The notes under the pieces were generated by a model. The model saw only the letters and a program-made list of their open reading frames with translations. It had not been told where the DNA came from and searched no databases. The translations under genes and the position numbers were made by a program. A stretch of DNA of 43,669 nt from Rhizaria sp. SCN 62-66 (Eukaryota): positions 62,001-105,669 of the forward strand of contig MEDY01000051.1 of assembly GCA_001724265.1 (NCBI GenBank), written 5' to 3'. Shown here one piece after another: positions 7,271 through 37,834 of this stretch; the first letter of the stretch is position 1; each line of letters opens with the position of its first letter.

Positions 7271-10052
7271 ATGTCGTACGCTCGCCCCATGGGTGTTCGC
7301 CGTGCCGCGGATCAGAGCTCCCTGCGCAGCTCGGGCGCCATGCATTCGTCCTCAGCCTCCTCAGCTCAGACCCAATCCCTGTCGGCCGCCGCTGCCGCGG
7401 CCTCGGGCCCCAGCGCGGTGCTGGCCGTGCCGCACTCGGGCGGCAACATTTACCGCGACTCCTAGACGCTGAGCCACGACCTGCTGCAGCTGAAGCGGCA
7501 GTACACAACGCTGGTGCAAGACAACTCGTACCTTAAGGCACAGCTCCAGCGCCTCGCCTCCGTGATCAAGAAGAAGGACGGGCAGCTGCAGCAGGTGCTC
7601 GGCGCCGGTCCTGCCGGTGGTGGCGCTGCGGCTGTTGCGGGCCCGGGCGGCGCTGGCGGCGCGAGGGGCATCGGCGCCCCTATTGGCAGCACTGCCTCTG
7701 GTACGTCATTTCCGTCGACTCCAACTATAAGCACGAAGTTGTGTATATCTCTCCAGGAATATAGAAGATCGTACCAACACTTGGTTTTCACATATATTTT
7801 GCCTATTTATATAGTGGTGCTACACGCATTTGTTTTTTTAGTTCATTAATCACCAGATATCCCCTAATCTTAATATCCTTTTGCTCTTGTGTTTCTCAGC
7901 CCTCGAGGCGACCGAGGACGAACGCCGGCTGCAGCGCCTGAAGCAGGAGCTCATGTCGATCGGCGTGCTGACCGAGCGCGTGCGCCTGCTGGAGACAGAG
8001 CTGGCGCAGAAGGACGCCGAGACGCGTGCGCTGCGCGCGGCGTCGAAGCAGTCTTACGTGCGCGAGCTCAGCGCAGAGGCCCAGATCTACTACAACGAGG
8101 CGCAGCGGCTCAAGAAACTGCTGGACAATAAGATCTACATGTACTCCGCCGTATACGCGCAGTCGCAACAGCAGCAACAGCAACAACAGCATTAGCAGCA
8201 ACAGCCGCAACAGCAGCAACAGCAGCAGCAGCAGCAGCAGATGAAGAGCAGTGGCAGCCGTGTCCGTTTCTCCGACAAGAACGGTACCGACCCCAACCGC
8301 GCCGTTAGCAGCGACCGCAGCAACCCAGGCTCGCCCCGTCGCAACGGCGGCAGCGGCGGCTCTGGCGCGTATAGCAACGACGGTGGCGACGACATCAACG
8401 TCTCTGGTTTCCCTCACGACGACGACACTGACCGCGGCCACGGCCACAGCCACGGCCATAACGTCGACGACATCGACGACGACATGCACGGCCACCGCGG
8501 CCACAACGGCAACAACGACGACGACGTTGCGTACGGCCCCTCGCAGCACGGCAGCGGCGGCCCCGGCCCCAGCGGTCGCGCGACCCCCTCCGACAGCAGC
8601 AACAGCAACGATGGCGGCGGCGTCGCGTCTGCGTCTGCGTCGGCCGCGGCGCGCAGCCAGGCGCGCGCGCACGCCCGCGAGCTGGCGGCGCTCGAGGCGC
8701 GGCTGCAGGCCGAGATCCGCCGCGAGCGCGCGCGCGCGGCCGAGCGCGAAGGCGAGATCTCCCGGCTCCAGGACAGGCTCACGCGCGCGCAGCGCGAGGC
8801 GGCCGAGCTCGACGACGCGGGCGCGCGGCTGGAGCTGCTGCTGGCGGAGCGCGACGAGAGCGTCACGGAGCTGCAGAGCAAGAATGCCGTGCTGCAGCGC
8901 GCGCACGCGGGCGTCGTGGCCGAGGCCGCGGCGCTCAAGCAGCAAGTCGCAGTGCTCGAGCAGTTCAAGCGGTCCATGGCGCAGTGGTCAGACGTGCTCG
9001 CCACGGCCTCCGCTGCCACTGCGGCGGCCACGACGACAACGACGACGGCGGCGACGGCCACATCTTCACCGGCACCGGCAGCGAGTTCGCAGCCACCGGG
9101 GCCGCCCGGGCTCGCTGCGTCGTTCGCCAGCGCTGACCCACACGCCCACAGCAGCGCGCACTCGGGCGGCGCGAAGCAGCACTCGCTGACCGCCGGCTCG
9201 AGCCACCCGCCCGCTGGCCCCGGCTCCGGCTCGGGCTCTAGCCTTCCCCCCAGCTCTGGCTCCGGCTCCGGATCCTGGAAGTCGAGCCCGTTCTTCGGCC
9301 GCGTGAGCGCCGCAGTGACAACGGCGGCGAGCGAGATCAAGACCAGCGTTGACTCGGAGGCCGCGGCCGCGTCTGCAAGGGCTAAGGCCGACGCTGACGC
9401 CAAGGCCAAGGCAGATGCAGAGGCCAAGGCAAAGGCTGACGCTGATGCTAAGGCTAAGGCAGATGCAGATGCCAAGGCAAAGGCTGACGCTGACGCCAAG
9501 GCCAAGGCTGAGGCCAAGGCGAAAGCCAAGGCGGCTGCGGACGCCAAGGCCAGAGCTGAGACGGAGGCCGCCGCTGCTGCAGCCAAGATGAGGGCTGCGG
9601 CCGACGCGGCGGCTGCAGAGGCGAAGGTTGAGGCCGAGGCACGGGCTAAGGCCGAGGCGGCGGCGAAGGCAAAGGCTGAAGCCGACGCTGCTGCGGCTGA
9701 AAAGGCCAAGGTTGACGCCGAGGCGCAGTCTTTCGCAGAGGCTAAGGCCAAGGCCAAGGCTGAGGCTGACGCCCTTGCCGCGGCCGCTGAGAAGGCGAAG
9801 GCTGACGAGGAGCACGCCAAGGCCAAGGCCGAGGCCGACACCAAGGCCAAGGCTGAGGCGGATGCGAAGGAGGCCGAGAGCCGGATGTTCGACGTCAGTG
9901 CGATCATGGACAACGACGACGTTTTCAGCGCCAAGGTGACCTCCAACAGTGCCGGGGGCAAGGTGATTGTGAACGGCGGCGGTGGCATCGGTGAAGAGGT
10001 TGAGGAGGACCTGGGCATGGAGATGGAGCTTGAACTGGACGAGACAGTTTAA
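7271..10052 (+). CDS. IQCE-like N-terminal coiled-coil protein with polyQ and Ala/Lys/Asp/Glu repeat tail (~860 aa if two in-frame TAGs are read through)
   Basis: Exons 7271-7700 and 7900-10052 with a phase-1 intron (G|GTACGT ... CTCAG|CC). In-frame TAG at 7463-7465 and 8193-8195. YRDS*TLSHDLLQLKR...KKKDGQLQQVL and ERVRLLETELAQKD...YYNEAQRLKKLL resemble, from memory, the IQCE segments YREKEDMYDEIIELKK...RKDRQIEQLL and YYEEVHRLQTLL. Terminal stop is TAA. Confidence 0.75.
8160..8240 (+). repeat. CAG/CAA polyglutamine tract containing one TAG codon
   Basis: CAA CAG CAG CAA CAG CAA CAA CAG CAT TAG CAG CAA CAG CCG CAA CAG CAG CAA CAG CAG... all in one frame. Confidence 0.9.
9380..9870 (+). repeat. 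Coding tandem repeat (AKAKADAD / AKAEA units)
   Basis: Repeated GCCAAGGC.AAGGCTGA units translate to AKADADAKAKADAEAKAK... Confidence 0.85.
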
Positions 10053-10432: not shown

Positions 10433-13400
10433 TCACTTGCGCTTGCTGCGCTTCTGTGCGCCGGAGCCGGTGGACCGCTGGCGCAGCGAGGCCATCTCGG
10501 CGTCCAGACTGGCGTCAAGGGCCGAGTCGGCGCGCTTATGGGCCTTGCGCGCGGCGAGCGCAGCCTTGAAAGCCGAGAGGATCTCCATCTGCGCGCGCGG
10601 GCCGAGTTGGACGTTGCCTTCGTCATCCTCCTCGTCCTCATCGTTGTCGTCGTCCTCGCTGTCGTCGGCGCCGGCCTCCTCTTGGTTGCTGTCCTCGTCC
10701 TCTTCCTCGTCATTGTCGCCGTCCTCGTCCTCGTCCTCGGACATGATCTCACCGACCTCGTCCTCGTCCTCGTCCTCGCCGTTGCCGGCGAACTCGGCGT
10801 CCTCCTCGTCGTCCTCGTCCTCGTCGTCGCCCAGGTCGTGCATCTCGGCGTTCATCTTATGCCCGACCTCGCCGTCCACCGTCACCTCGATCAGGCCCTT
10901 AAGGTAGAGCTCGCACACGAACCAGTGCAGGAACATCTTCTTGATGCGCTTCGTGATGCGCGGCTGCGACGAGCCCTCGCCGTCCTCGTCCTCGTCCTCA
11001 TCAGCGTCCTCGTCCTCGTCCTCGTCCTCGTCTTCGCCGTCGCCGTCGCCGTCCTCGCCCATGAGCGCGAAGGGCAGCTCCGAGTCGAACTGCGTGGCCG
11101 TGTGCAGCATCGCGCCCCAGTCGAGCTCGATCTCGTCCACGCGAAGGAAGCGCGGCGCCTCGGTCAGCAGCTGCCGGAACGCAGTCAGCGTCGTGATCGG
11201 GAACGATAGCGGGTTACACAGCGGGTTGAAGTACGGCTTGTACAGCTCGCCCGACATGGCCTCGGCTTCAGCGGCCTCGGCGGCCTCGTCGTCCTCGTCC
11301 TCGTCGCTGTCCATGCCGCCGGCATCGACCTCATCCTCGTCTTCGTCCTCGTCACCGTAGACGGCGCCGTCCATGCCCTCGGTGTCGCCGGAATGAACGA
11401 AGTCCTCGTCGTCCTCGTCCTCGTCCTCGTCCTCACCGGCTGCGCGGCGCGCGACCTCGGCGTAGCGCGCGTAGCGGTCGCGCTTGTCTGCGCTGCTGAG
11501 CACGCCCGCGCCGCCGACCATGTGCGTGCGCCGGTCGTTGAGGTCGGCCGAGTAGACCGAGACCTGGACGCGCGAGGGCGGCAGGTTAGACATGTAGTAC
11601 ATCGTCTTTTCCGTAGCGCCGCCGGCCTCGCCGTCCTCATCCTCGTCCTCGTCCTCGTCCTCATCGTCGTCGCCGCCGGCCAGCTTGGCGAGAGCGGCCT
11701 TCTTGGCGGCCTTCTTATTGGCCTGCGCGCGCTTGATGTCCGCGATGGACGCGAAACCGTCCTCGTCGGCGCTCACGGGGTCGCTGTCATCGCCGTCGTC
11801 CTCGGCAGCAACGTCATCATCCTCATCCTCATCCTCGTCTTCGCCCTCATCCTCGTCCTCATCCTCGTCCTCGTCCTCGTCGTCCTCGGACTCGGCCTCG
11901 ACGACGGGCTCGACGGCGACGGTGACACCGTCGGGCGACTTGAGGCGGATGCACGAGCTCATCTTGATGTGGCGCAGCACGTTGTACACCTCAACCATGG
12001 GCTGGCCCGCGGTCGCACTGAGCGCCACGGGCAGCATCATCGCCAGGTCGTCGTTGGTCTCGCTGTCCTCCTCGTCTTCGTCTTCGTCCTCGTCCTCGTC
12101 GAACGCGACGCGATCAACGCCGTCCTCGTCCTCGTCCTCGTCCTCAGCGTCGGCATCAACGTCCTCGTCCTCATCCTCGTCCTCATCCTCGTCCTCGTCC
12201 TCGTCGGACTCGTCGTCCGAGTCGTCAGGGCGGTAGTAGTCGGGCTTGGGCAGGCGGTGCAGCGCGAAGTCGCGCTGCAGCTCGTCGGCCGCGGCGTGGA
12301 TGTTGACGTGCTCGGCGAGCGCGCGCAGCCACGACTGGACCTTGTCGGCGCAGAAGGTCTGGCGCAGCGAGCGCAGGTAGTCGCGCTGCTCGGGGTTCAC
12401 GTTGCCCGCGCGCAGCCAGAGCCGGTTGTGGTGGCCCGTGTCGTCGCCCATGACGCGCAACGGAATCGACGGCGCGTACTGAGACATGTCGTCCTCGTCC
12501 TCGTCGGGGTTGAACTCGTAGTCGCTGCTCTCCTCTTCCTCCTCGTCGTCGTCGGCAGCAGCGGCAGCCTTCTTGCCCTTGGCGATAACAGCCTTGGAGA
12601 CGGCCTTCTTGCCGCCCTTCTTGCCCGCAGCGCCAGAGTCGGAGTCGTCCGAGTCGGACACGACTTCCTGGAACTCGGCGTCGTCGTCAGAGTCGGCGGA
12701 GGCCTTGTCGCCCTTCTTGCCCTTCTTGGCGTACTTGTTGTTCTTGCCGGCCTTAGCGTCGGGTTTGACGCTCACGGTCTGCGTCTTGCTGCCCTTCTTG
12801 AGCAGGTTCTTCTTCTTGTACACCGTCTCCTCGTCCGAAAGCTCGAAATCAGAGTCGATGTCGACGTCCTCGTCGCCCTCCTGCGGCGCGAGCGAGTCCA
12901 GGTCGATCTGACCCTGCTCGTCGTCCTCTTCCTCCTCCTCCTCGTCCTCGTCGCCGCCGTTGGTGCCGGCCTGCTCCTCGGCGATGATGCCCTCCGCCGT
13001 CACGGCCGCGTCGTGCACAGTGCCCAGGAAGGCGCCGTAGTTGAGCGGCAGCGCGCGCTTGATGCTGGGATCGGACTGCTTGAGTCCCTCGAGCGCGGCC
13101 GTGAGCGCGACCGAAAGTAGTGACGCCCAGTTGCTGCCCTGCGCGCACGAGATCGTGAGGTGCGACGACAGGCAGTCGGCCTGCGTCACGGCCTCATGGA
13201 TCACGCCGCGAGGCAGGTACAGCAGGTCACCTGCCGACAGCGTGATCTCCGCCGTCGGCTCGCCGAGCGACTCGCGCGGGAGATCACCAGAGCAGCGCTC
13301 GGCGAGCTCGTCGATGGGCCGGTACAGGCGCCACGTCTTCCGGCCCTCGAGCTGGCAGACGAAGACCTCGACGTCGTCGTGGTGCGGCGCGAGCCCCTGC

Positions 13401-15181
13401 GAGCCGGGCGGTGTGATGTAGCAGTTGGCGCCGACGAGTCCACCAAAGAAGCGCTCGAGCGCGTAGAGCGTGCGCCACACGGCCTTGCTGTGCTGCTGCG
13501 GGTGCAGCGCCTGCAGCGTGCAGCCCACGCGCAGCATGTCCGACGCGCTGTGCGTCGTCACCAGCTGCCGCGCGCGCTCCTGTTCGTCGTCGAGCGCCTG
13601 CAGCTTCTCCAGCGCCGCGCGCAGCGTGAGCCCCTGAAGCGCGTCGTCGACGGTGCTTTGCGAGAGCGCGTCGTCAAGGCTCTCGTCCTCAGCGTCGTCG
13701 CCCGCGCGCGGCACGTTGGCCGAGCCCAGGTCCGGGATGGGCTCCTCCTCGGGGTCCTTGCCCTCCTTGCGCATCGCGCGCACGGCGCGGAGCAGGCGGC
13801 GCATCATGACGTCTACGCCGCGCGCCGTCGGGTTGGAGTGCGGGTTCATGTCAATCTTGACGCCGTCGGCGTTCATCACGCACGCCTCGACGTTCTTGCC
13901 CCACAGCATCGCGCCGTGCGCGCCGGACTCGGCCTCGGCGGCCGCGGACCCGTCGCCGACGCCCGCGAAGACCTCGCGCGCCGTCGTCGCGCCGTCGCGG
14001 CCGTCGATGGCGGACATGGCGCCCAGCGCGCCCTCGGGGTGGCTCGGCCGCAGGGCCGCCTCGGCCTCGGCCACGTGCGCGCGCGCCTCGTCCAGGTACT
14101 CCTGCGCCTCGGTATACTTGGAGTACACGCGCTCGACCTCGGCCTTAGAAGGCATGCCCGCGCGCTTCTTGCTGGCCGCCTTGGAGCCCTTCTTGGCGTC
14201 CTTCTTGGCGTCCTTGCCGGCCTTCTTGCTCTTGGCCTCGCCCTCCTCCTCCTCCTCGTCGTTGTCGTCAGAGGAGCTGGCGTCGCCGTCGAGCGACTTG
14301 CCCAGCGTGAGCCGCTCGAGTGCGGCCCACTCCTCGGCCGACTCGGCGGCCGCGGCCTCGACCTCGGCGAGCATCTGCTTGGCCTCGGCCAGGCGAGCCA
14401 CGGCCTTCTCCTTGCGCGCAACGGCGTCGAAAAAGGCGTCGATGCCGTACAGCCCGGCGAAGTAATCCTTCTTGTCACGCTTGACGTACAGCGGGCGCTT
14501 CTCCCAGTACTGCGTGAAGAACTGGTCCACGGTGAGGGGCGCGATGAGCGCGGAGAAGACGAGGTTGGGCTCGCCGTAGTCGACGCAGGCCATGAAGTCG
14601 CCAGATTCGGGGTGCTCGTGGTCGTGCGCGGCCGCGCGGGCCTCGTCGTCCTCGTCCTCGTCCTCGTTGAGGTCCTGCAGATCGGCGTCGTCCATGTCGT
14701 CGACGTCCTCGTCCTCGTCCTCCTCCTGGGCGGACTCGGAATCGGAGTCCTTCATCGCGGCGGCAGCCTTGCCCTTCGCGGTGGCAGCCTTGGCGGACTT
14801 CGAGGGGGCAGCGGCGGCGGCAGCGGGCTTGGCGGCGGACTGGCTCTTGGCCTTAGCCTTGGCGGCGTCGGCGGCGGCAGTGAGCTTCGCGATCGCAGAG
14901 GCAGCGGCCTTGACGTTGGCATCGTTCGCAGCAGCCTTGGCAGCGGCGGCAGCGGCAGCCTTGGAGGCAGCAGCAGCCTTCTCGGCTTTAAGCACGTCGG
15001 AGCGGCTCGCAGTGGAAGGGATGAGGTCGGGCACGTCGTCGCTGTCGTCACCGGAGGCATGTTTGTTGCCCTTGCCCTTGGTGCTGGACTTGCCGGGCTT
15101 CGCAGCAGCGGTGGGGGCGGCAGCGGCGGGCTTGGAGCCGCCGTGCGCCTGCGGGGGAGAAGGCTTCTTCCCCTTGGACAT
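10433..15181 (-). CDS. RIOX1: NO66/RIOX1-family JmjC ribosomal oxygenase with very large Asp/Glu and Lys/Ala insertions (~1582 aa, single exon)
   Basis: Motifs LIAPLTVDQFFTQYWEKRPLYVKR, GCTLQALHPQ, LVGANCYITPPGSQGLAPHHDDVEVFVCQLEGRKTWRLY, LSAGDLLYLPRGVIHEA and SSHLTIS. The HxD...H iron triad is intact. ATG at 15181, stop TGA. Confidence 0.9.
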   Translation of the reverse strand: MSKGKKPSPPQAHGGSKPAAAAPTAAAKPGKSSTKGKGNKHASGDDSDDVPDLIPSTASRSDVLKAEKAAAASKAAAAAAAKAAANDANVKAAASAIAKLTAAADAAKAKAKSQSAAKPAAAAAAPSKSAKAATAKGKAAAAMKDSDSESAQEEDEDEDVDDMDDADLQDLNEDEDEDDEARAAAHDHEHPESGDFMACVDYGEPNLVFSALIAPLTVDQFFTQYWEKRPLYVKRDKKDYFAGLYGIDAFFDAVARKEKAVARLAEAKQMLAEVEAAAAESAEEWAALERLTLGKSLDGDASSSDDNDEEEEEGEAKSKKAGKDAKKDAKKGSKAASKKRAGMPSKAEVERVYSKYTEAQEYLDEARAHVAEAEAALRPSHPEGALGAMSAIDGRDGATTAREVFAGVGDGSAAAEAESGAHGAMLWGKNVEACVMNADGVKIDMNPHSNPTARGVDVMMRRLLRAVRAMRKEGKDPEEEPIPDLGSANVPRAGDDAEDESLDDALSQSTVDDALQGLTLRAALEKLQALDDEQERARQLVTTHSASDMLRVGCTLQALHPQQHSKAVWRTLYALERFFGGLVGANCYITPPGSQGLAPHHDDVEVFVCQLEGRKTWRLYRPIDELAERCSGDLPRESLGEPTAEITLSAGDLLYLPRGVIHEAVTQADCLSSHLTISCAQGSNWASLLSVALTAALEGLKQSDPSIKRALPLNYGAFLGTVHDAAVTAEGIIAEEQAGTNGGDEDEEEEEEDDEQGQIDLDSLAPQEGDEDVDIDSDFELSDEETVYKKKNLLKKGSKTQTVSVKPDAKAGKNNKYAKKGKKGDKASADSDDDAEFQEVVSDSDDSDSGAAGKKGGKKAVSKAVIAKGKKAAAAADDDEEEEESSDYEFNPDEDEDDMSQYAPSIPLRVMGDDTGHHNRLWLRAGNVNPEQRDYLRSLRQTFCADKVQSWLRALAEHVNIHAAADELQRDFALHRLPKPDYYRPDDSDDESDEDEDEDEDEDEDEDVDADAEDEDEDEDGVDRVAFDEDEDEDEDEEDSETNDDLAMMLPVALSATAGQPMVEVYNVLRHIKMSSCIRLKSPDGVTVAVEPVVEAESEDDEDEDEDEDEDEGEDEDEDEDDDVAAEDDGDDSDPVSADEDGFASIADIKRAQANKKAAKKAALAKLAGGDDDEDEDEDEDEDGEAGGATEKTMYYMSNLPPSRVQVSVYSADLNDRRTHMVGGAGVLSSADKRDRYARYAEVARRAAGEDEDEDEDDEDFVHSGDTEGMDGAVYGDEDEDEDEVDAGGMDSDEDEDDEAAEAAEAEAMSGELYKPYFNPLCNPLSFPITTLTAFRQLLTEAPRFLRVDEIELDWGAMLHTATQFDSELPFALMGEDGDGDGEDEDEDEDEDADEDEDEDGEGSSQPRITKRIKKMFLHWFVCELYLKGLIEVTVDGEVGHKMNAEMHDLGDDEDEDDEEDAEFAGNGEDEDEDEVGEIMSEDEDEDGDNDEEEDEDSNQEEAGADDSEDDDNDEDEEDDEGNVQLGPRAQMEILSAFKAALAARKAHKRADSALDASLDAEMASLRQRSTGSGAQKRSKRK

Positions 15182-15671: not shown

Positions 15672-18600
15672 TCACCGGTACCCCACTTTGCCGAGCGCGG
15701 CGGCTGCCCGATCAGCGCCATGTGCCGCCACGAGCGCGTCAGCCGCGGCACGCGCCGCGGGGAGCGGCTGCACTGCGAAGCTGCCCAGCGGCGGCGGCGC
15801 GCTCCTGTCGAGCGCCACGGCAGTGAGCGCCAGTGACGACGGCACTGGCGATGACTGGCTTGACTGGGAGGACTGGGAGCCGGAGTGCGAGCGCGAGGCT
15901 GAGTGCGACAGCGTGAGCTGCGCAAGCGGCGAGCTGGGCGACGCCGGGGAAACGGGGGAGACTGAGGAAGAGGGGACAGGCGCCGCACTCCAGTGGCCCT
16001 TCGCAACGTCGGCCGTACTAGCGGCAATACCGCTGGCTCCGTTTACAGCAGAGTTTTGAGATGATGTTAAGTCGGAGGCTGAACGGCTCGGAACGGTGGC
16101 ATCAAGATCGCTCATTGCCTACATTGCACGATCGTCTGCGCCATTGTCGTCGCTATGGTCGTCACTCTCCGTCTCGGTGCACTCTTCCTCGTCCGCTGTG
16201 TTTTCGTCGTCCCCGCTCTCCACCGACGCCGACGGCGACGCCCTCAGACCGGGCGCCGCCGCCTTGGCCGCCTCCGCCGCCGCGGACTCAATGCGGCGCT
16301 GGCGCATGTCCTCGCGGCGCTCGCCGCGGTCGTCGACGTAGTTGCCCTGCGGGTCGCGCGGCGCCGTCTTGAGCCCCGCGCCGCGCGCAAAGACGCCGCC
16401 GCCGAGGCCCTGCACCAACCCGGGGGGCAGGTTCGCGCTCGCCAGGCTCGTGGTAGCCGGGCTCGTGTTTGTCGGACTCGGACTCGGACTCGGACTCGAA
16501 CTATAGTCGGCGCCCTGGCCCGCGCCGCCGGCCACGGCAGAGCTGGCAAGAAAGTTCCCTCCCGCTGCCGACGGCGACCGCGCGGTGGCGCTGATGCCAA
16601 TCGGCGGCGTCGTCGCGGTGTTGACGTTGACGTTCAGGGAGCCGGCGCCGCCGCTGCGAGGCTGCGCGACGACTTGCGCCCGCAGCCGGTCGAGCGATAT
16701 CCGAGAGGGGTCCACCGTCGGCAAGCCTCCCAGCGAGCCGCCACCGCCCGCGGCGGCTGCCGGCGCAACGGCCGCTGCAGCTGCGGCGGGCGCAGCTGCG
16801 GCGGGGTGCATGTAGCTGTGGCTGTGGCTGCGGGCCCGCGCAGTGGCGTTGGCGGCCGCGACAGCGTCGGGCTCGCAGGCGCCGCCCACGGGGTCAGCGG
16901 CAGCGGCAGCGGCAGCGGCTGCGGCCGCAGAGGCGGCCGCCGCAGCGGCTGCCGAGGGGGCCGCTTTGCTACTGGCGCGCGCGTGCGCCGCGGCTAAGTG
17001 ATCCATCGGGCCAGCGCCGGCCTTAGCTCGCGCCCGGCTTAAGGCCTGAGTTGCCGCCGCCGTCGCTGTTGCCGCCGACTCACGGCGACTGCTTCCGCGG
17101 TCGCGAGTGGCGCTGCGATCGTCAGAGTCGCTGTCACTGTCGCCGATAATGTCAGCGGCAGGAGTATTGATCGCGCCCATCGCGGCGGTGTCAAGATTCT
17201 GGCCGCGGTCGCGGCCACGGAATACGCGACCAGTCGTGAACGGCGGCACGGGCACCAGTTTGAACGCCACAATGCGGTTCTTTGCTTGCCACTCACGCTC
17301 GCGGTCGCCCAGCGCTCTGGCGTCGAGCCCCAGTCCGAGGCCGCGGCCGAGCCCCACGGCGCGGCTGCGCGTCCCGGCGGGCAGGAGGGCGTAGCTCGCG
17401 TGCGGCATCGTGGCGGCGTAGGCGTTGAGCTCCTCTTCCGACGGGAGCATTACGCCCGTCACGGCCTGGCTCACACCGCCCCACTCGTCCCCGGGCGCCT
17501 GCCCAAGCTGCGGCGCCGCGGCGGCGGCCGCGGCGGGCTGCTGCCGGAGCGGCGCGCGCGCGACGAGACAAGGGCCCGGCAGCCGGATGCGGTTGATGCC
17601 GTGCCACAGGTTGTACTCTATTTGGCTCTTGTCCGTCGCCAAGCTCCCAGCAACCTTGTCGTCGACGTCCCGCGCGCGGGCCAGCAGCGCGCGCGCGCTG
17701 TCCCGCGCCTCGGTGGCCTCGCGCAGCGCCACCGCGCACTTCGCGACGTGAACCTGGGTGAGGTGCAGCGACTGCCGGGCTTCTTGCAGGGCTTGGCTCG
17801 CGGCGGCGTGCACAGCCACGGCTGCTGACAAGGCAGAGTTGCTAATGCCTTTCTGTGAACGCGCTGCTTGAAGCTGCTGTTTGGTTTCAATCTCAGCTTG
17901 CTCGGCAGCAGCCATGTTTGTGCGCGCTCTGTGAAAGATGGGGGAGAAGGCAAGAAAGGGGTTTGAGTGGAGAGTAATTTAGACATCCGACAAGTGAACA
18001 ATACAAATACATAATACTAAAAACAAGTTATGTTGCATTTATCGTGTGATTCAATATGATAGACGTACATATCAACTGTTTTGACGGCTTCAGCCTGCTC
18101 GACAGTATAATCCTTGACAGTCCCCTTGAAGAAGCGTGCCTGCCTCACAATGAGCGCGCGGCGCGCAGCTACTGACAGCAAGTGCCAGCGCTTTGTCGCC
18201 ACAAGATCGCGCTGGACCTCGACATCGCGCGCCATGTTAAGCCGGCGGGCGAGGTCAAGCACGATCGAGTCGATATCGCCAATCAGCTGCATGTCGAACC
18301 CGCCCGCGCCGTAGAGCACGACGGGCCCAGATTTGCGGTCGTCGCGGCCGCTCTGCTTCTGCTGCATAGCCAGCTGGAAATTAAGGTGTTTCTGGAAGTC
18401 TGACTTCGGCATGACGTCGTAGCCCGGCAGCGCGACGGGCTTGTGGTTGATCGCGACCACGCGCGCGTTGCGGGAGAGACGGTGCGGGAGCGCGCGCGTC
18501 GGGAACGCCTCGAGGGAAGAGCCGATGATGAGGACGAGCTTCACAGCGTCACGGTCCTCGTAGTTGTCAATGACGTCGACGCCGGTCATGGGGTTGTTCC

Positions 18601-21600
18601 TAAAGCTCTGCGGGAATGGGGCAAGATTAGGGATCATAAGACCCTTGCACTTGCACACGACTCCGGCCGTGTCGTCACTGTCATCATCGTCGTCATCATC
18701 GTCAGCGTCGTCGTCGTTTTCGCCCATCTCGCTCACGATGGTGATGTCACGCGCGCGGGTGCTCTTGCGGGTGCCGCTTGGGCCGCCGCTGGCGTTGCTC
18801 TTGATCACGCGGCTCTGCGCAGCCGCAGCGCTGGCCACGTTGTTTGATACGTTGTTTGACGACGCAAAGTACGAGTTTGATGAGGACGGCGCCAGAGTGT
18901 CTATGAGTCCACTGGACACAGACTGATCCACGTTCGCGTCATTAGGCTGCTCACTCTTGAATCGACTGCCGTAGCCGGACTCGGCTAATGTCGCACGGTC
19001 AGGCTTCTTAACAGTGACAATCATGCAGTCGACATCACTCTCACTCTCGATTTCGCTCTTGCCGCCCTGCTTGCCCCTCGCGTTATTGTTCTTCATCGCA
19101 GCCGCAAGCCGCGGACGCTTGCCGCTGCTGCCTTTCTCGTCATCATCACTATCATCGTCGCTCGAGTCAATGACGATCGGCCCCTCAAGCCCACCGCCCT
19201 GTTGGGTCAGCGTGATGCTGATGCGGCTCATGGCCAGCGCGGACCGCTGCGCCAGCCCACCGTGCTCAGCGACAAAGCCGTCCTCGCCATCAGCAGGCGC
19301 ACTGGTGCCATGTGAAGACGAAGAGGAGTGCGCACGCTTGCGGTTGTTAAGCTCTGCAGCGGCGCCACCCCCCAGGATTGAGTCCTTATACTTGTCAGAG
19401 ATGCGTGAGCCGCTGTAGACTTGTTCTGTCACCTTGACCGAGGGTGTGCTTAAGACTGCGCTGAAAATAGAGTTACTGCCGCGCTTTCGGGCCTTCTTCT
19501 GCTCGAGCCGAGCGCGCCGGGCTTCGGCAGCAACGGCCGCACATGTGACACACCCCAGAGGCTTGCCGTCGCCGCCACTGTTCTGAGCGTCATCAGACCC
19601 AAGAAGCAGCTTGGTCACAGCCTCCTTGTCCGGCTGGACGACACAGCTGCCGCGCGAGGCCACGCCGCCTGTACCGGAGAAAACCCCTCGGTCGATCACC
19701 GAGCCGTCATAGGCGCGGTGCGACTTGGAGCAGCGGAACGTGCTGAGACTGCCATTGCAGCGCACGAGCATCGACTGGCGCACCAGCGCCTCGGCCTCCA
19801 GGTCGTCCATGTTCTCTGTGTAAACGCGCGTGATGATCGAATCTTTGGTGTTAGACAGCAGCGACACGAAGAAGTGCGTGAACGACGGCAACACGAAGTT
19901 CTTGCGACGCAGCGCTGCGAGGTCGCGCACGAGTTGCTGGAGCTGCTGCTGCAGAGCGGCGCGCGCTGCGGGGTCCTCGCTCGTGGCCTTGTTGCTCAGC
20001 ATGCGCGTGATCTTAGTCTCCCAGGGCTCCGCGTCGGCGCCGGCAACGCCTCCGCTCGAGAGCGCGCCTGCGCGAACGATGCTGTTGGCGAACGAGCGGA
20101 AGAAGGCATAGGCCGGCCACATGCTAATAGGATTGGCGCCGCTTTCCGCACCTTGTGACATCCCTTTCTCGGTATCACTGTCACTTTCGCTTGCGTTAGC
20201 GCCCGCGTTGAGCTTGGCGACACCGTCTGTGTCGAGCGGCCTCGCCAACATGTTCCTGGCATCAGTTATGCGTGCCTTGTTCACGAACTTGCGCGCTTCA
20301 ATTTGTTCTGGGGAGCGAGTTGAGTCACTCCTGAGAGTGCTGTCATTCGACTCATCATCGGACACAGTACCTCCACAGAACTCAACGTCGGCAGTGGTCA
20401 CGTTCGCGGTGTTAAACTCTTGCAGCGGCATCTCCGTCCCCGGGTTTACGCCGCGCCTGAGTGTAAACGTCGCGATGCCGGTGCTGGCGCTGACCCCCGG
20501 CCCGAGGATGACGGCGACCGCGCGCTTGGAGCCCGGCCGCGACACGCTGCGCTTGTCGTCTTTGTCCTCGCCAGCGCCACGCTCGCGGTCCGCGCCGAGG
20601 CGTGAGAGCGTGCGCGGGTCCCGCATCGCGGCGACGAGGTCGTCGATTGACGCCAGGCCGCCCCTGTGCGGGGCGCGGTACGACTCATCGACCTTGCACA
20701 CGGGGCACATGAACTCGTGGTCGCGGTAGAACCGGAGGTCGTCGGGCGTGATCGGGGGCTCCACGCAGAAGCCGTGGAAGGACTGGTTGCACATGTCACA
20801 CAGGATGAGGTCGCCGGTGTTGCCGCACTTGGTGCAACTTTCGTTGTTAATGGATTTAAAAACAAAGTTAACATTGTTCCCATCCTCATCGTCGTCATCA
20901 TTATTGCTATCAGCGCTGGCGCTCTTGTCGGCGCTCTTGTTCTTGCTCTTACTTTTAGCTTTAGTCGACGCCTTAGCAGGCGCCTTCGCGGCAGCCTTAG
21001 CCTTGTCACTCGTCTTCGACTTCGTCTTGTCCTTGTCACTGCCACTGACAGGCTTGCTCTTCCCGCGACTCGAGCTGGAGCTGAAGCTGGAGCTGAAGCT
21101 GGAGCTCAAGCTCGACTTAGTAGAGCTCGAGGTCGAACTCGAGCCCGAGCGAGAGCTAGACGACTTCTTAATCGAGCTAGAGCCCGCGTCGGCAGCGCTG
21201 ACAAAGGAGCTGCTGGGTTGCGCCGAGGAGCGAGCCTTGGCCTGAGGCTGCTCAGGCGGGGCCTCGACCTTCACTCGGACTTCACCGCCGTCGCTGCGCC
21301 TGTTCTTGTTCTTGTCCTTGTTCTTGTCCTTGCTCGTGCCCTTGCTCGTGCCCTTGTCCTCGTCCTTGTGACTGGCCTTATTTGCGGTCTGTTTATCACC
21401 GCTGCGGCTACTAACACGACTATCCGCGAGACTGCTGCTGGCGCCGGCGCTGGCGCTGGTGCTGGCGGCGTTGTTGCGACCGCGCTCGCTGGTACTGCTG
21501 CGAGAGCTCTTGGCGTCGCTAGTGACAGCCGACTTGCTTGCACTGCCGGCCTTGTCCTTGCCCGACGCCTTGCCACTGGCCTAACCTTTGCCGTAATCCT

Positions 21601-22033
21601 GACCCTTGCTATAGTCATTACCCTTGCTGTAATGAGCGTTCTTGCCCTGCGGCCTGGCGTCCGTGGGCAGACGTGCGTTCTTCGCGTTGCCATTGTCAAT
21701 ACCCTTGCCTTTGTTCTTGCTCTGGCGCTGCGCACTGCCGGGCCAGTGCTTGCTGGGCCGACGGTCGTCGTAGTCGCTCCAGCGGTCGCTCTCGTCGTCG
21801 CTGCCGCTGCTACTGCCGCTGCCGCTCTCGATATCGATATCGCTCTCTGTGCAGTCGTCGCTGCTGCTCACGCTGGGGCTGCGGGCGCGACTGCGGCCGT
21901 GCGGACGGTGACGACTGCTGCTGTTGCTGCTGCTGCTGCTGCTGGTCTTGCCGTGGCCGCTACGACTGCGATTACTGCCACTACCGTGATGACTGCGAAT
22001 ACTGCCACTGTTGTCATTGTTACGGTTGTTGCG

Positions 22034-22066
<33 letters not shown>

Positions 22067-22603
22067 GCGGCTTCCGCTGCTAGCGGCAGGGGTGCTCTTG
22101 CTCTTAATGCTGTCCTTGCGAGATGTCTTAGAAGTGCGCACATAGGTTGAGCGCACATCAGAATCAGACTCAGAGCACAAGTCGAGTTCGGAGTCGGAGA
22201 GAACGACAAGGTCACTGTCGTTCGAGATGTCGTTCTCGTCTGTCGTGTCCGTCATCCTGCGCGGGGGCTTTTGTGGCTGTTGTCGCAAAGGCCTTGCCTG
22301 GGTTGCTGAGGACGAGGATGATGATGAGGGGCGCGCATGCGAGCTCTTGATGCTTTTACTGCTGCTGCTTTGGCTGCTGTCTTTCTTGCTGCTGCGACTG
22401 GTGCTGCTGTTGTCGCCGCTGCGGGACGCCGAGAGGGAAGACACCATTCCTGAGCGTTCCTCCCTGTTCTTGCTCTTATCAGCTTTCTTGTCCTTTTTAT
22501 CACCCTTGGTAATTGACGAGGAGGAGTGGCGACTGCGAGCCGGGACATCGTCGGATTCAGACTCGCTCACGGTCTATGTTCGAGTCACCTTCGTGCGTGG
22601 CAT
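15672..22603 (-). CDS. PHD-finger + degenerate Sir2 (sirtuin) domain protein (~2263 aa if three in-frame TAGs are read through; 2 exons)
   Basis: ATG at 22603 (MPRTKVTRT*TVSESE). Exons 22603-18069 and 17928-15672 with a phase-2 intron (AT|GTACGT ... CACAG|A). In-frame TAG at 22574-22576, 21581-21583 and 16119-16121 join listed ORFs in one frame. C4HC3 PHD at 20696-20836. Sirtuin-like motifs GPGVSASTGIATF, PSFTHFF, YTENMDDLE, CNGSL, IIGSSLEAFP, INHKP, FDMQLIGDID. Stop TGA. Confidence 0.8.
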
Positions 22604-31468: not shown

Positions 31469-34400
31469 TTAGAACTTAGCGACCAGCGACACAGGGTTCA
31501 GCTTGGCCAGAATGGGGATATCGGCGATCATGTTGCGGCGCGAGCCAGCCTTGACGACGGGCGGCTGCTTGCGGAGCGCAGAGATACGGCCGATAAGGCA
31601 CTCGAGGGGCTCCTCACGCTGGAACGCGGGGCAGAGCTCGAGGGCCTCGCCGGACGAGGTCTCCTTGCCGAAGGTGAGAGCGACGTTCTTCTTGCTCTCC
31701 TTGGAGGCGGCGCGGACAACGCCGAGCTGCTTGAGCACGGTGAAGGCGTTGTCAAGCGTCTCCTTGGAGCACGACTCGAAGAAGGACAGCATCGACTCGT
31801 GGTAGAGCGTGGTGGCGAGCCACTGCGTCTGCGTCACGAGCAGGTCGCGCGCGATCGAGCGCGAGGGCTGCAGCGTGTAGAGCATCGTCGACGCCGTGTA
31901 GAACGAGTCGACAAAGGGCCAGAGCAGCGAGCACATGAACGAGAAGTGGGCCTCGCCGGTGGACGCGACGACGACGCGGGCGCCGTCGGCCGAGAGGGTG
32001 ACGATGCCCATCTCCTGCATGCGCGCGAGCGTCGCGACGTGGTCCTCGGGCTCGTCGGGGTTCTCCTTGATCACGAACTCGGACTGGAGCAGCGCGTGCA
32101 GGAAGCCGACCTCCTTAAGCGCGGCCGCGACCTCGACGGGCGACTCGTGCAGCGGGCCGTCGCACTTGGACAGCGCGTAGATGACCACGCACCAAAGTGC
32201 CTCGCGGTAGAAGTAGTGCACAAGACGGTTCTTGTACTGGCCCAGCACGAGCATGTTGTTGTACTCGTTGCGCGCCGTGATGGCGGGCTCGAACACGTTG
32301 CGGTTCTGCTTGCGCAGCACGTCCGAGAGGTACGACACGGCCTGCTCCATGACGGACTCGCGTGACTCCATCTCAAAGCCGAAGGTGGCGCCGCCGCGGA
32401 GCTCGACCTCCTTGGCGACCCAGACCAGCTTGGCCTGCAACTGAGCCGCCGTGATGCCCTGGCGGTACTGCAGCATCAACGTCGCCGCGATGTGCACTGG
32501 CATCGTCTCGATGTTGAGCGCGAGCTCGTGCAGCACGTGGTGCGCCATCGAGCGGATGCGGTACTTTTTGTCCGTGAGCTGCGTCGCAACCGTGGCGGCG
32601 ACGGCCGAGATCTCGGCCGCGGTGGCCGAGGGCGCGGCGACGAGCGCCTGATGCGCAATCGACATCGACAGGCGCTGCACCGTGGCCGGGACGGCGACCT
32701 TGGCGGCGAAGTCGGCGGACCACTGCTTCATTGAGAAGGGCTTGCCGCAGATGAGCGTGGTGCGGCCGAAGTTGGAGTTAAGCACCTGGCGCGCGCGGAC
32801 GAGCGACGAGAGCGACTCCTTGATCTTGCGCTCGCCGGAGAGCTCGGAGGCGTACATGTTGCCCTCCATGATCTTCTCGTAGTTGATCGTGAGGGGCACG
32901 ATGGTCACGTCCTTGACGATGCCCTTCTCAACGGCGTTGTTGACGAACGTGAGGAGGCCCATCTTGGGCTGCAGCATCTTGCCGGAGCGCGAGCGCGTGC
33001 CCTCGATGAAGAACTCGAGCGACTGACCGTCGGCGAGCAGCAGCTCGATGTAGCGCTGCAGGATCGCAGAGTACAGCTTGTCCTGAAGCACACGGATAAA
33101 AATGAAAGAATGGAATTGACGGTGTGAGTTGAAATGCGGTGCGTAAGGAAAAGGTGCGAGCCAGGTGGGCTTGTGAAACAGAGCTTAGTGCTGAGAGAAT
33201 CAGTAAAAAAAAGTATGTTCGCTTCATCCGACACCAACGGCCCTGCGGCTATCGATGCCTCCGATTGACGTGCAAATGTAACTTTTGATCATCACACAAA
33301 CATTACTAAACAACAACGAGCGATACCCAACATATGAGAGATGAATACATACCTTGGCAAAGGAGCGGCGCATGAAGAAGGCGCCGGACTTGCGGAAGAG
33401 CCAGCGCACGGCGAGAATGCCGAGGAAGTCCTCGCCAGCGGCGATGAAGGGCACGGGCAGCTGCAGCAGGAAGGCGGCGTACGATACGAGGAGGAAGTCG
33501 ATGTAGGAGCGGTGCGTGGGGAGGTAGATGATGGGGCCGTCCTTGGCGGCGTCGGTGACCTCGGAGAGGTGCTGGCGCGCGACGTACACGCCCTCATACA
33601 CGCGGCGCCACACCTTGCGGAAGAACCAGCCCATGCTGGCCACGACCTGCTCGCTGGGCTCGGCGAACATGCTCTTGAGGATAGAGTTGGCGCGCGCGTT
33701 GGCGATGTCGGTGGGGGTCTGCAGCTTGAGCTTCTTCTTGGGGACGGTGCGCGTGATGTGCGCGATTTCGGCGTCGAGCGCTGCGATGACCTCGGGCGAC
33801 TCGAGCACCAGGCGCATCAGCTCCGACGCGGGGCGGGCCTTGGGGTACAGGGCCTTCTCCATGCGTTCGGTGATCGCACGCTAGAGTGGGACACGCGAAA
33901 AAGAAAAGGAGACATTAATGTGGTGAGATCGTGTTCAAATACATACATTTTTGCGGAGTGCGAGAGGACCTGTAAAGGTATGTTGTAGAATTGGAATGTC
34001 TGGGCATCTCGGCACACCGACGTTATTGAAAAAACGCCAGCGTTTCCTATATCCGCTCAAGTACTTTTTAGCATCAACCCGGCACGACTAACCCCTTAGT
34101 CTAGGAAAGTCGCGTGGCAAAGGGACGTGCAGATATGACATTAGGTGAAAGAGCTTGACCGTAACTGCGTACTGTTCCAAGATCTCCAGCTTCATGCACA
34201 TGGTAGAAATAAGATAACTGCAAGGTTACGTACGCGAACGACGTCGAGGTCGGGGAAGAGCTTGTACGACGTGGTGTGACGGAAGGGGTTGAGGATGTCG
34301 TGAGAGATGCAGAAGTGCTTCATGTCGCGCTGCTTGATGGGCAGCAGAGGCGACTTCATGGTGTAGCGCATGAGACCAAAGCAGAAGAGCTCGGAGTAGC

Positions 34401-36144
34401 GCACCCAGTCAAGGTCAGTAAGGTCGAGCTTGAACTCGGCCTTCTCGTCCTCGCGGATCATGCTGTATACGGAGCGTACGTTACGGTTGTCGTACACCCA
34501 CTGGTTCTCAACAAAGTGCTTGAACGCCTCAATCAACACACGCACTTGCCTGCAAGTCGCGGAAAAGAAAGAAAAAGTGCACATGTGAGTAATGATTGGT
34601 TTGAATAACGAAGGCAACAAAACGTTGAAGGAACAAAGCAGTTCCTTCAAACAATAGAAGAGTGTTTAAAGTGGGAATGTCTGGGCATCTCGGCACACCG
34701 ACGTTACTGAAAAAACGTCAGCGTTTCCTATATCCGCTCAAGTACTTTTTAGCATCAACCCGGCACGACTAACCCCTTATTCTAGGAAAGTCGCGTGGCA
34801 AAGGGACGTGCAGAAGTTGTGTTGTCTCTAAAGACAAACGCAACTTATCAACAGAAATATCTAGCAAAATATGAGACGGGAAGATGGTACGTACCAAAGA
34901 AGCTTCTCGAACTGCTGCGCCTTAGCCTTGTAGGAGTCGGTGCCGACGAGCGCGAGCGTCTTGAGGATGCTGGCGGGCAGCGAGTACTGGAGCAGGAAGC
35001 GTAGCTGGTAGGCCTGCGGCGAGGGCACGAAGTTGAACTCCACGGGGCCGATCGCGCGCGGCGGCGGGTGGCGCTGGAAGAACTGCTTGACGACATTGAG
35101 CGGGTACTCCCACGGCATCGGGTTCTCGGAGGAAGACGCGGCGTGGCAGATGAAGTACTTGCCGCGCTTCTCGAACACCGCGGGCACGGCGGCGATGATG
35201 GCGTTGGAAACGTAGTCGACGGGGATGACGTCGCCGACATTCTGCGGAGAGCCGGGGAGAAACTTGACTACACCCATGCCGACGGCGATGTAGACGGCGC
35301 CGGCGGCAGAGACAACGTCGACCCAGCCGGGGACGGGCTCGGACCAGGCGGAGCCGACGATCGAAGGGCGGCAGATGACGAGTGGGATGTCGCCGCGGTG
35401 CTTGATCAGCAGCTGCTCCGTCATAGCCTTGGTCATCGTGTATGTGTTGGGCCACGAGTGCAGCAGGCCCGTCGTGGCAATGTTCTCGAGCTCCGAGGGA
35501 GGCATCTTGCGCACACGCTCGACCATCTCCTCGGGGTCGAAGCCCAGCGGGTAGACTTTCTCCTCGATCAGCCCGTTAGCGCGGTTCGAGTTGACGTAGC
35601 AGGTCGAGACGTGGAGGAACGCGCCGATGTTCTTACACTTCTTACCAATCTCGAGCATGCGCAGCGAGCCCATGGCGTTGAGCTCGATGGCGCGGTCAAG
35701 GCGCTCGTTGAAGTCAACGACGGCGGCGCAGTGAATGATGATGTTAACGTTATCGTAGAGCATCTCACGGTCAGACTCGGAGATGCCTACGTGGTTCGCG
35801 GTGAGCTCACCAGCAACAGCAACGAGCTTGTCAGTGCAGAAAGCATCGAAGTCAGGGCGCTTAGAACGCAGAGTGGTGAAAATCTCGGAGCCGAGGATTT
35901 CCTCACGCATACGCGCGTCAGGGGTCTGGTCCTTGCGGGGACGCACAAGCACATAGACACGCTTGACATCCGGGCACGAGCGGAGGAGCTTCTCGAGCAC
36001 AACCTTGCCGACGAAGCCGGTGGCGCCAGTGAGGAAGACGCAACGACCACGGTAAGTTCCGATAATCGAAAGGTCGCGCACCTGCGGAGGAAGGTGCTCG
36101 CCGTAGACGTTGTCCTCCGGCGCCATACCGGAAGAATCAGCCAT
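31469..36144 (-). CDS. FARAT: Bifunctional fatty acyl-CoA reductase / DHAP(GPAT)-acyltransferase fusion (FARAT-type), peroxisomal, ~1244 aa, 5 exons
   Basis: Exons 36144-34895, 34549-34234, 33969-33943, 33880-33353 and 33082-31469 splice in frame at GT-AG sites. FAR motifs: FLTGATGFVGKVVLEKLL and NTYTMTK (YxxxK). Acyltransferase motifs: PTHRSYID (HxxxxD), GAFFMRR, FIEGTRSRSG. C-terminal -AKF is PTS1-like. Stop TAA. Confidence 0.9.
33195..33300 (-). ncRNA. Intronic box C/D snoRNA, snR72-like (predicted guide for the LSU Am876-equivalent site)
   Basis: Box C GTGATGA (33295-33289), box D' CGGA (33263-33260), internal hairpin, C'-like GGATGA, box D CTGA (33203-33200). The 12-nt guide ATTTGCACGTCA is complementary to conserved LSU UGACGUGCAAAU. 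The D'+5 rule selects the A of CUGAC. Confidence 0.8.
33994..34132 (-). ncRNA. Intronic box H/ACA snoRNA, snR34/U65(SNORA65)-like, copy in FARAT intron 2
   Basis: Hairpin - H box AAAGTA (34067-34062) - hairpin - ACA+3 nt. Pocket 1 (TGCCAC / GCCGG) fits LSU CUGGC-Psi-U-GUGGCA. Pocket 2 (ATAGGAA / GCCGA) fits LSU UCGGC-Psi-C-UUCCUAU, 14 nt from the ACA box. Confidence 0.88.
34675..34813 (-). ncRNA. Intronic box H/ACA snoRNA, snR34/U65-like, copy in FARAT intron 1
   Basis: A 139-nt copy of 33994-34132 with only 3 substitutions. Boxes and guide pockets are identical. Confidence 0.88.
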
Positions 36145-36991: not shown

Positions 36992-37834
36992 ATGTCTTAC
37001 GACCGTGCCATTACCGTGTTTAGCCCCGACGGCCACCTATTCCAGGTCGAGTACGCCATGGAGGCCGTGCGTCGCGGTGGCGTTGCCATCGGCGTCGTGT
37101 CCAGCGACACCATCGTCTTCGGCGTCGAGAAGAAGAACGTCGGTCACCTGCAGGACCCGCGCACGATCCGCAAGATCTACAAGCTTGACGAGCACCTTAC
37201 GCTCACCTTCGCGGGCCTCACCGCCGACTCGCGCAACCTCGTGGATCGCGCGCGCATCGAGTGCCAGTCGCACCGCCTGACCTTCGAGGAGCCGGCCACG
37301 GTGGAGCACATCGCGCGCTTCATCGCTGAGACGCAGCAGAAGTTTACCCAGCGTGGTGGCCGCCGCCCATTTGGCCTCAGCACGCTTATCGCCGGCTTCG
37401 ACCCCAACGGTGCGCCCCGCCTCTTCCAGACGGACCCCTCCGGCACCTACACCGAGTGGAAGGCCTGCGCCGTCGGCCGCAGCTCCACCGCTATCACCGG
37501 CCTGCTCGAGCGCATGTACTTCAACGAGGAGGCGCCCAAGGAGGGCGACAAGGACTCCGGCGAGAGCAAGTCCAAGGTGGCGTCGGACGAGCAGCTCGCC
37601 GCCGCGCAGGCCGCCGCGGACCCTGTGCGTCTGGCGCTCAACGCGCTGTCCGAGGTCGTCGACGGTGGCGCCAAGGGCGTCGAGGTCGCTATCATCAAGA
37701 ACAAGAAGTCGTTTGAGCTGATGCCCGCGGCGGACGTCGAGGCCGTGTTCAAGAGCATCAAGGAGGAGAAGGAGGAGCTCGCCAAGCAGGGCAAGCTGCC
37801 CGAGCCTATTGTCCTCGACTCCGAGAGCTACTAA
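36992..37834 (+). CDS. PSMA7: 20S proteasome subunit alpha type 7 (alpha4/Pre6), ~280 aa
   Basis: MSYDRAITVFSPDGHLFQVEYAMEAVRRG, FAGLTADSR, TQRGGRRPFGLS, LFQTDPSGTYTEWKA. Strong C/G third-position bias. Stop TAA. Confidence 0.95.
   Translation: MSYDRAITVFSPDGHLFQVEYAMEAVRRGGVAIGVVSSDTIVFGVEKKNVGHLQDPRTIRKIYKLDEHLTLTFAGLTADSRNLVDRARIECQSHRLTFEEPATVEHIARFIAETQQKFTQRGGRRPFGLSTLIAGFDPNGAPRLFQTDPSGTYTEWKACAVGRSSTAITGLLERMYFNEEAPKEGDKDSGESKSKVASDEQLAAAQAAADPVRLALNALSEVVDGGAKGVEVAIIKNKKSFELMPAADVEAVFKSIKEEKEELAKQGKLPEPIVLDSESY

Follow-up and report, generated by a model that had tools for sequence, protein, structure and literature searches.

In the 43,669-nucleotide stretch of DNA analyzed here (the window), UAG probably codes for an amino acid, with UAA retained as a stop. 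TAG codons occur in frame, none of them is terminal, and coding-like sequence continues past each of them. The window derives from a eukaryotic nucleus, its exons being GC-rich, its introns of the GT-AG type, and its spacers richer in AT, and since it encodes a JmjC oxygenase and a fusion of a fatty acyl reductase (FAR) to an acyltransferase, it appears to come from an aerobe. The full picture that we favor, on a narrow balance of probability, is that of an aerobic protist in whose nuclear genome UAG is a rare sense codon, likeliest for glutamine (Gln), with UAA and UGA serving as stops.

The window-wide pattern was drawn from nine gene models, built by hand and totaling 11,440 codons. Across the 12 stretches scanned, Pfam domains were found for JmjC, PHD and SIR2, CH and IQ, fatty acyl reductase and acyltransferase, and proteasome alpha; the labels ASPM-like, NAA50-like, and ankyrin-like that we use for window genes are our presumption. 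TAG occurs in frame five times, in two of the nine genes (at 7463, 8193, 22576, 21583, and 16121), and is absent from the PSMA7, FAR/acyltransferase, JmjC, and presumed NAA50-like genes. TAA and TGA are never found in frame and both serve as terminators, TAA of six genes and TGA of three, with no gene ending in TAG. Chance alone would leave nine genes without a TAG stop with P = 0.13 if TAG is assumed to make up 20% of stops (P = 0.04-0.39 when its assumed share runs from 30% to 10%). Trained on the seven TAG-free genes, a codon score is positive over the next 150 nt after all five TAGs (+0.27 to +1.24) and negative after all nine stops (-1.30 to -2.46), the post-stop scores being partly circular because the non-coding background includes post-stop sequence. 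With no TAA in frame, a joint reassignment of UAA and UAG to Gln or to glutamate (Glu), of the ciliate, diplomonad, peritrich, or Blastocrithidia types, was rejected. No tRNA genes were found in the window.

Two of the five TAGs lie in a two-exon gene of 861 codons, which runs from an ATG to a GT donor (exon 1, 7271..7700, +), across an intron (7701-7899), to a TAA (exon 2, 7900..10052, +). Exon 1 has 12 homologue matches, and P0123, named IQ domain-containing protein E (IQCE), is collinear over both exons, its residues 84-128 matching the first and 140-195 the second. Such named IQCE matches are weak (E 0.095-0.13), and closer homologues reach E values down to 4e-19. These collinear matches make the N-terminal coiled-coil region homologous to that of IQCE, a protein with a ciliary role; there is no Pfam IQ match on either exon, and we therefore call the gene IQCE-like. 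P0129, a 1,013-aa full-length orthologue, also matches exon 2, with homology on both sides of TAG 8193, and its end is similar to the acidic C-terminal tail that precedes the TAA at 10050..10052 (+). Across this TAA, GC content drops from 0.59 to 0.32 and the codon score from +0.78 to -2.05, as expected of the true stop. The C-terminal half of the protein also carries Ala/Lys/Glu/Asp repeats with a 24-nt period (9350-9870), which are present in P0129 as well. The first in-frame TAG (7463..7465, +; codon 65) is situated in the conserved N-terminal coiled coil and is the only one within a conserved domain or motif, the other four being in low-complexity sequence.

The second TAG (8193..8195, +; codon 242, in exon 2) is the one on which the original prediction was built, as a TAG amid a CAG/CAA tract with more than 600 open codons beyond it. 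This description is accurate: the quoted codon string is found at 8181-8213, and 618 open codons follow the TAG up to the TAA at 10050. The polyQ-coding tract (8160..8240, +) spans 27 codons, 23 of which are CAG or CAA, the rest being TCG, CAT, CCG, and the TAG itself. Glu is encoded by none of the 26 codons besides TAG, and CAT and CCG are, like TAG, one base from CAG. The tract had been presented as the most direct clue to the residue; it does point to Gln, but less strongly than claimed since non-Gln interruptions are tolerated in it. Moreover, a single TAG in a single tract is by itself within chance, and the case is carried by the window-wide pattern. Protein homologue searches did not find a version of the polyQ site in a relative, P0126 dropping out of frame earlier. 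They did find P0138, a 104-aa protein identical to the window's ORF except for the start codon, which ends at the His directly before TAG 8193 and is recorded on seven, possibly non-independent, contigs; gene callers truncate such proteins at TAG.

The three remaining TAGs, all in Ser/Asp/Lys-rich surroundings, belong to a gene on the reverse strand (15672..22603, -; exons 22603-18069 and 17928-15672; 2264 codons), which ends in TGA and encodes a PHD finger (Pfam, residues 590-636) and a fragmented Sir2-like domain (SIR2, 902-972). The least secure is codon 10 (22574..22576, -), as there is a later ATG at codon 53. Codon 341 (21581..21583, -), upstream of the PHD finger, forms the third unit of a KGN/KGQ/KG-TAG repeat, and no Met is encoded from there to the inside of the PHD finger. 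Codon 2115 (16119..16121, -) is followed by 148 open, coding-like codons. Restart of translation at a later ATG was considered for the TAG-bearing genes and rejected, as the proteins would then lack the first coiled coil or have their PHD finger interrupted.

Parts of the stretch are present in 11 of the 13 sequencing runs listed, from six studies of bioreactors, wastewater, and activated sludge. Setting aside runs with small shares of the stretch, contigs from three of them (X3, X4, and X5) leave four of the five TAGs unchanged. TAG 7463 is retained in contigs of all three, while TAG 22574-22576 is bridged by X4 piece 16, TAG 21581-21583 by X3 piece 8, and TAG 16119-16121 by X3 piece 5, each with no other letter at the site. 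The X5 contig, which spans 7413-7678 with TAG 7463 intact, comes from an RNA library that may contain DNA, and there is no spliced RNA joint among the contig joints listed. TAG 8193 is bridged by none of the 32 contig pieces listed, 8157-8252 having been skipped as a repeat when contigs of other runs were aligned to the window. Run X4 also contains a second diverged haplotype or a sister species (7463-7564 and 11531-13483), in which 10 of the 11 classified differences in the JmjC gene are synonymous; 24 of the 40 differences listed were classified, those in repeats being left out.

As for the residue, Gln is the assignment that we consider a little better than evenly likely. Both the polyQ site and the KGN/KGQ/KG-TAG repeat at 21583 point to Gln, the TAG-bearing genes are Gln-rich and not Glu-rich, and Gln codons match the way TAG is spread among genes 8-15 times better than Glu codons do, a comparison that shares part of its basis with the evidence from sequence context. 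A rough likelihood calculated across all five sites comes to 0.49-0.64 for Gln, at most 0.04 for Glu, and 0.05-0.20 for Ser, with Leu outside the top five, while the two IQCE-like sites together give 0.87-0.92 for Gln and ~0.01 for Ser. That five-site likelihood ignores the codon of a close relative, GAG, and the direct CAG-to-TAG route, and therefore understates Glu. The conserved column at TAG 7463 tells a different story: among 11 homologues (the 12 matches minus P0127, a 3,944-aa protein with 24 stretches, and P0130, a tandem-repeat protein, plus P0123), nine have Glu, one Ser, one Gln, and none Leu. The closest homologue, P0126, which is 68% identical, is among the nine, and the likelihood for this site alone is 0.40 for Glu versus 0.14 for Gln. 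One Glu column is nevertheless compatible with UAG encoding Gln, as just 41% of UAG codons at highly conserved columns faced Gln in Iotanema, according to the accessible text of its description (PMC5304391).

A Glu-encoding UAG, which we hold to be unlikely, would be read by a tRNA(CUA) derived from tRNA-Glu(CUC), with UAA and UGA as stops and the polyQ TAG as one more tolerated interruption beside the single-base changes to CAT and CCG. In its favor, the second X4 haplotype, a close relative, has GAG at the TAG 7463 site, its other listed differences in exon 1 being four synonymous and one non-synonymous. However, this haplotype rests on two low-depth contigs, with 40 of its 101 differences among those listed, and the JmjC gene has no TAG despite its 193 Glu codons. 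In the accessible part of the relevant survey, published UAG-only reassignments are also more often to Gln (PMC11687900). Ser, Lys, Tyr, or Leu, or an ambiguous near-cognate reading after weakened eRF1 recognition, would suit the Ser/Asp/Lys-rich sites of the PHD/Sir2 gene, and UAG-to-Ser and UAG-to-Leu changes with UAA as stop are on record (PMC11687900, as far as its accessible text goes). In view of the two IQCE-like sites and of the single Ser at the conserved column, a residue other than Gln or Glu is nonetheless improbable. The prediction that TAG is synonymous with the Gln codons is thus supported as regards read-through and retention of TAA as a stop, by the window-wide pattern and by homology flanking two TAGs; the identity of the residue, in a tract that tolerates CAT and CCG and with a mostly Glu column at 7463, is only likelier Gln.

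The main rival to a sense UAG is a standard code under which both TAG-bearing genes, the IQCE-like and the PHD/Sir2 gene, would be young pseudogenes in which nonsense mutations have become fixed. Loss of flagella might allow an IQCE-like gene to decay, the five TAGs are confined to two of the nine genes (clustering P = 0.045-0.11), and TAG is the commonest nonsense product in these genes, ~68% of random nonsense changes yielding it. Five TAGs out of five then have P = 0.14, and this nonsense-spectrum test alone does not separate recoding from decay. Decay would, however, have left the 3,125 codons of the two genes with five nonsense changes yet not one TAA, TGA, or frameshift (at indel-to-substitution ratios assumed to lie between 0.02 and 0.1, P = 0.016 to 0.0002), and would require the death of two unrelated neighboring genes. 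Strain-level differences in the two genes, three synonymous and three non-synonymous, are too few to decide. On this evidence, we regard pseudogenes as a decidedly unlikely explanation. Less probable still is that assembly errors or splice acceptor sites, and not codons, account for the TAGs. The focal TAG, unbridged by any contig piece listed, might be an error, and a TAG followed by CAG can resemble an acceptor, but the other four TAGs recur unchanged in other runs and the protein that ends at 8192 is recorded on seven contigs. The acceptor explanation was rejected because conserved coding sequence lies directly upstream of 7463; moreover, true introns in the window have GTACGT-like donors and pyrimidine-rich acceptors, from which the CAG repeats before 8193 differ.

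A relative allowed a comparison beyond the window. L001, one clade member among the 80 loci from a PSMA7 scan of metagenomes, has eight genes, all ending in TAA or TGA and none in TAG, so that TAG terminates none of the 17 genes pooled from L001 and the window, which argues against pseudogenes under a standard code. In-frame TAG is likewise missing from its 4,779 codons, versus ~3.3 expected under shared usage (P ~0.04), and the clade therefore provides no replicate of TAG usage, a point on the side of pseudogenes. In genome contigs, the matches listed were 80 loci in prokaryote genomes with at most 52% identity, and protein scans of viral contigs found no relatives. Two quick PSMA7 trees place the organism within a clade of 17 of the 120 rows (SH-aLRT 100), on the Lotharella side of a branch (SH-aLRT 95-96) that splits off the named animals, fungi, plants, amoebozoan, and haptophyte. 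These single-gene trees, made without bootstrap and with no named ciliate or stramenopile included, may be distorted by long branches, and give a weak hint that the organism belongs to SAR or Rhizaria.

Several other features of the window deserve mention. The proteasome alpha subunit (36992-37834) has a ~25-residue insertion common to 16 of the 17 clade sequences, which makes it a handy marker for relatives. The JmjC protein (10433-15181, -) reaches 1,582 residues by way of long Asp/Glu tracts, and its coding sequence, which is one exon, includes 193 Glu codons and lacks TAG. In the fusion gene (31469-36144, -; 1,245 codons in five exons), a fatty acyl-CoA reductase is joined to a glycerol-3-phosphate acyltransferase, an arrangement that presumably resembles the ether-lipid enzyme FARAT. 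Two of its introns harbor 148-nt copies that are 96% identical (33986-34133 and 34667-34814, -) and are probably a duplicated intronic snoRNA. Both match the H/ACA snoRNA SNORA65 below the Rfam gathering score (23.3 and 20.0 bits versus 70; E 0.097 and 0.58), their folding does not exceed that of shuffles (z -1.2 and -1.6), and the intronic-repeat pattern had no matches in the genome-contig and viral-contig collections.

From the in-frame TAGs we infer translation through UAG, the residue inserted, and the changes in tRNA and eRF1 that would go with it. The proposed route is codon capture. The wider clade would first have ceased to use UAG for termination; one copy of a duplicated tRNA-Gln(CUG) would then have gained, through one base change, a CUA anticodon, which should pair with UAG and not with UAA; recognition of UAG by eRF1 would have been lost or weakened; and TAG would have entered weakly biased, low-complexity coding regions via CAG-to-TAG transitions. 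The absence of TAG stops from all 17 genes, with in-frame TAG in the window organism only, fits loss of the stop first and capture later. In the accessible text on Iotanema, too, UAG but not UAA is decoded by a tRNA(CUA), a single base separates this tRNA from tRNA-Gln(CUG), and eRF1 changes are expected (PMC5304391). The same anticodon is also one base from tRNA-Glu(CUC), with a precedent in the ciliate PL0344 (PMC10553269, accessible part). Rare TAG usage, in a lineage whose relative uses TAG neither in frame nor as a terminator, is what early codon capture is expected to look like, and this lineage could thus put the codon capture model to a direct test. Judging by the parts of the literature accessible here, there are few nuclear exceptions to the rule that UAA and UAG change meaning jointly (PMC5304391, PMC11687900, PMC10553269), and a sense UAG in this organism would be an independent UAG-only case outside ciliates and metamonads. 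With parts of the stretch present in 11 runs from six treatment-plant and bioreactor studies, the genome and RNA data needed to settle the code probably exist already.

According to the accessible part of the survey, UAG alone has been reassigned to Leu (in the rhizarian exLh and one ciliate lineage), to Gln (in Iotanema, two phyllopharyngean lineages, and Protocruzia), and to Ser (in Scotinosphaera) (PMC11687900). The code of exLh (Sainouroidea; UAG encoding Leu, UAA and UGA as stops) is likewise a UAG-only reassignment, possibly in the same supergroup, but exLh has 384 UAGs at Leu columns in 71 conserved genes, in the text available, and the conserved genes of the window have none (PMC5304391). 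An exLh-type code was rejected on this ground and because none of the 11 homologues has Leu at the TAG 7463 column. In Oligohymenophorea sp. PL0344, where UAG encodes Glu and UAA encodes Lys, a tRNA(CUA) derived from tRNA-Glu reads UAG alone, as would be the case here if UAG encoded Glu; UAA is also a sense codon there, whereas in the window TAA ends six of the nine genes and is never in frame (PMC10553269, accessible part). An undescribed code, in which a non-ciliate, possibly cercozoan, wastewater protist would read UAG as Glu and stop at UAA and UGA, has a rather small chance of being correct; it would have been caught early, TAG usage being ~1% and GAG still occupying the TAG 7463 site in a close relative. 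We found no report of UAG encoding Glu with UAA as a stop, or of a matching code in Cercozoa or Rhizaria, in the literature covered, which included little from subscription journals or supplements.

A Gln-encoding UAG with UAA as a stop is already known from Iotanema and three ciliate lineages (PMC5304391, PMC11687900, in their accessible parts). The organism of the window appears to resemble none of these. The ciliates Hartmannula sinica, Trochilia petrani, and Protocruzia tuzeti would share the code of the window if its UAG encodes Gln, and in the DRG2 gene of H. sinica one UAG faces a glutamate, as far as the accessible text describes (PMC11687900). The window has GC-rich exons and, in the nine genes, introns of ~60-350 nt, a make-up that seems unlike that of ciliate genomes in general. 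The closest parallel is Iotanema spirale (UAG encoding Gln, UAA and UGA as stops), in which, as in the nine gene models of the window, UAG is found in frame and not at gene ends, UAA is the main stop, and UAG is a minority codon, according to the accessible part of its description (PMC5304391). Iotanema is an anaerobic fornicate, in contrast to the apparently aerobic organism of the window, and its UAG makes up ~8% of Gln codons, versus 5 of 353 (1.4%) in the window if UAG is Gln (PMC5304391, same part). Most likely, then, a known code is at work here in a lineage not previously credited with it, the window behaving like the code of Iotanema.
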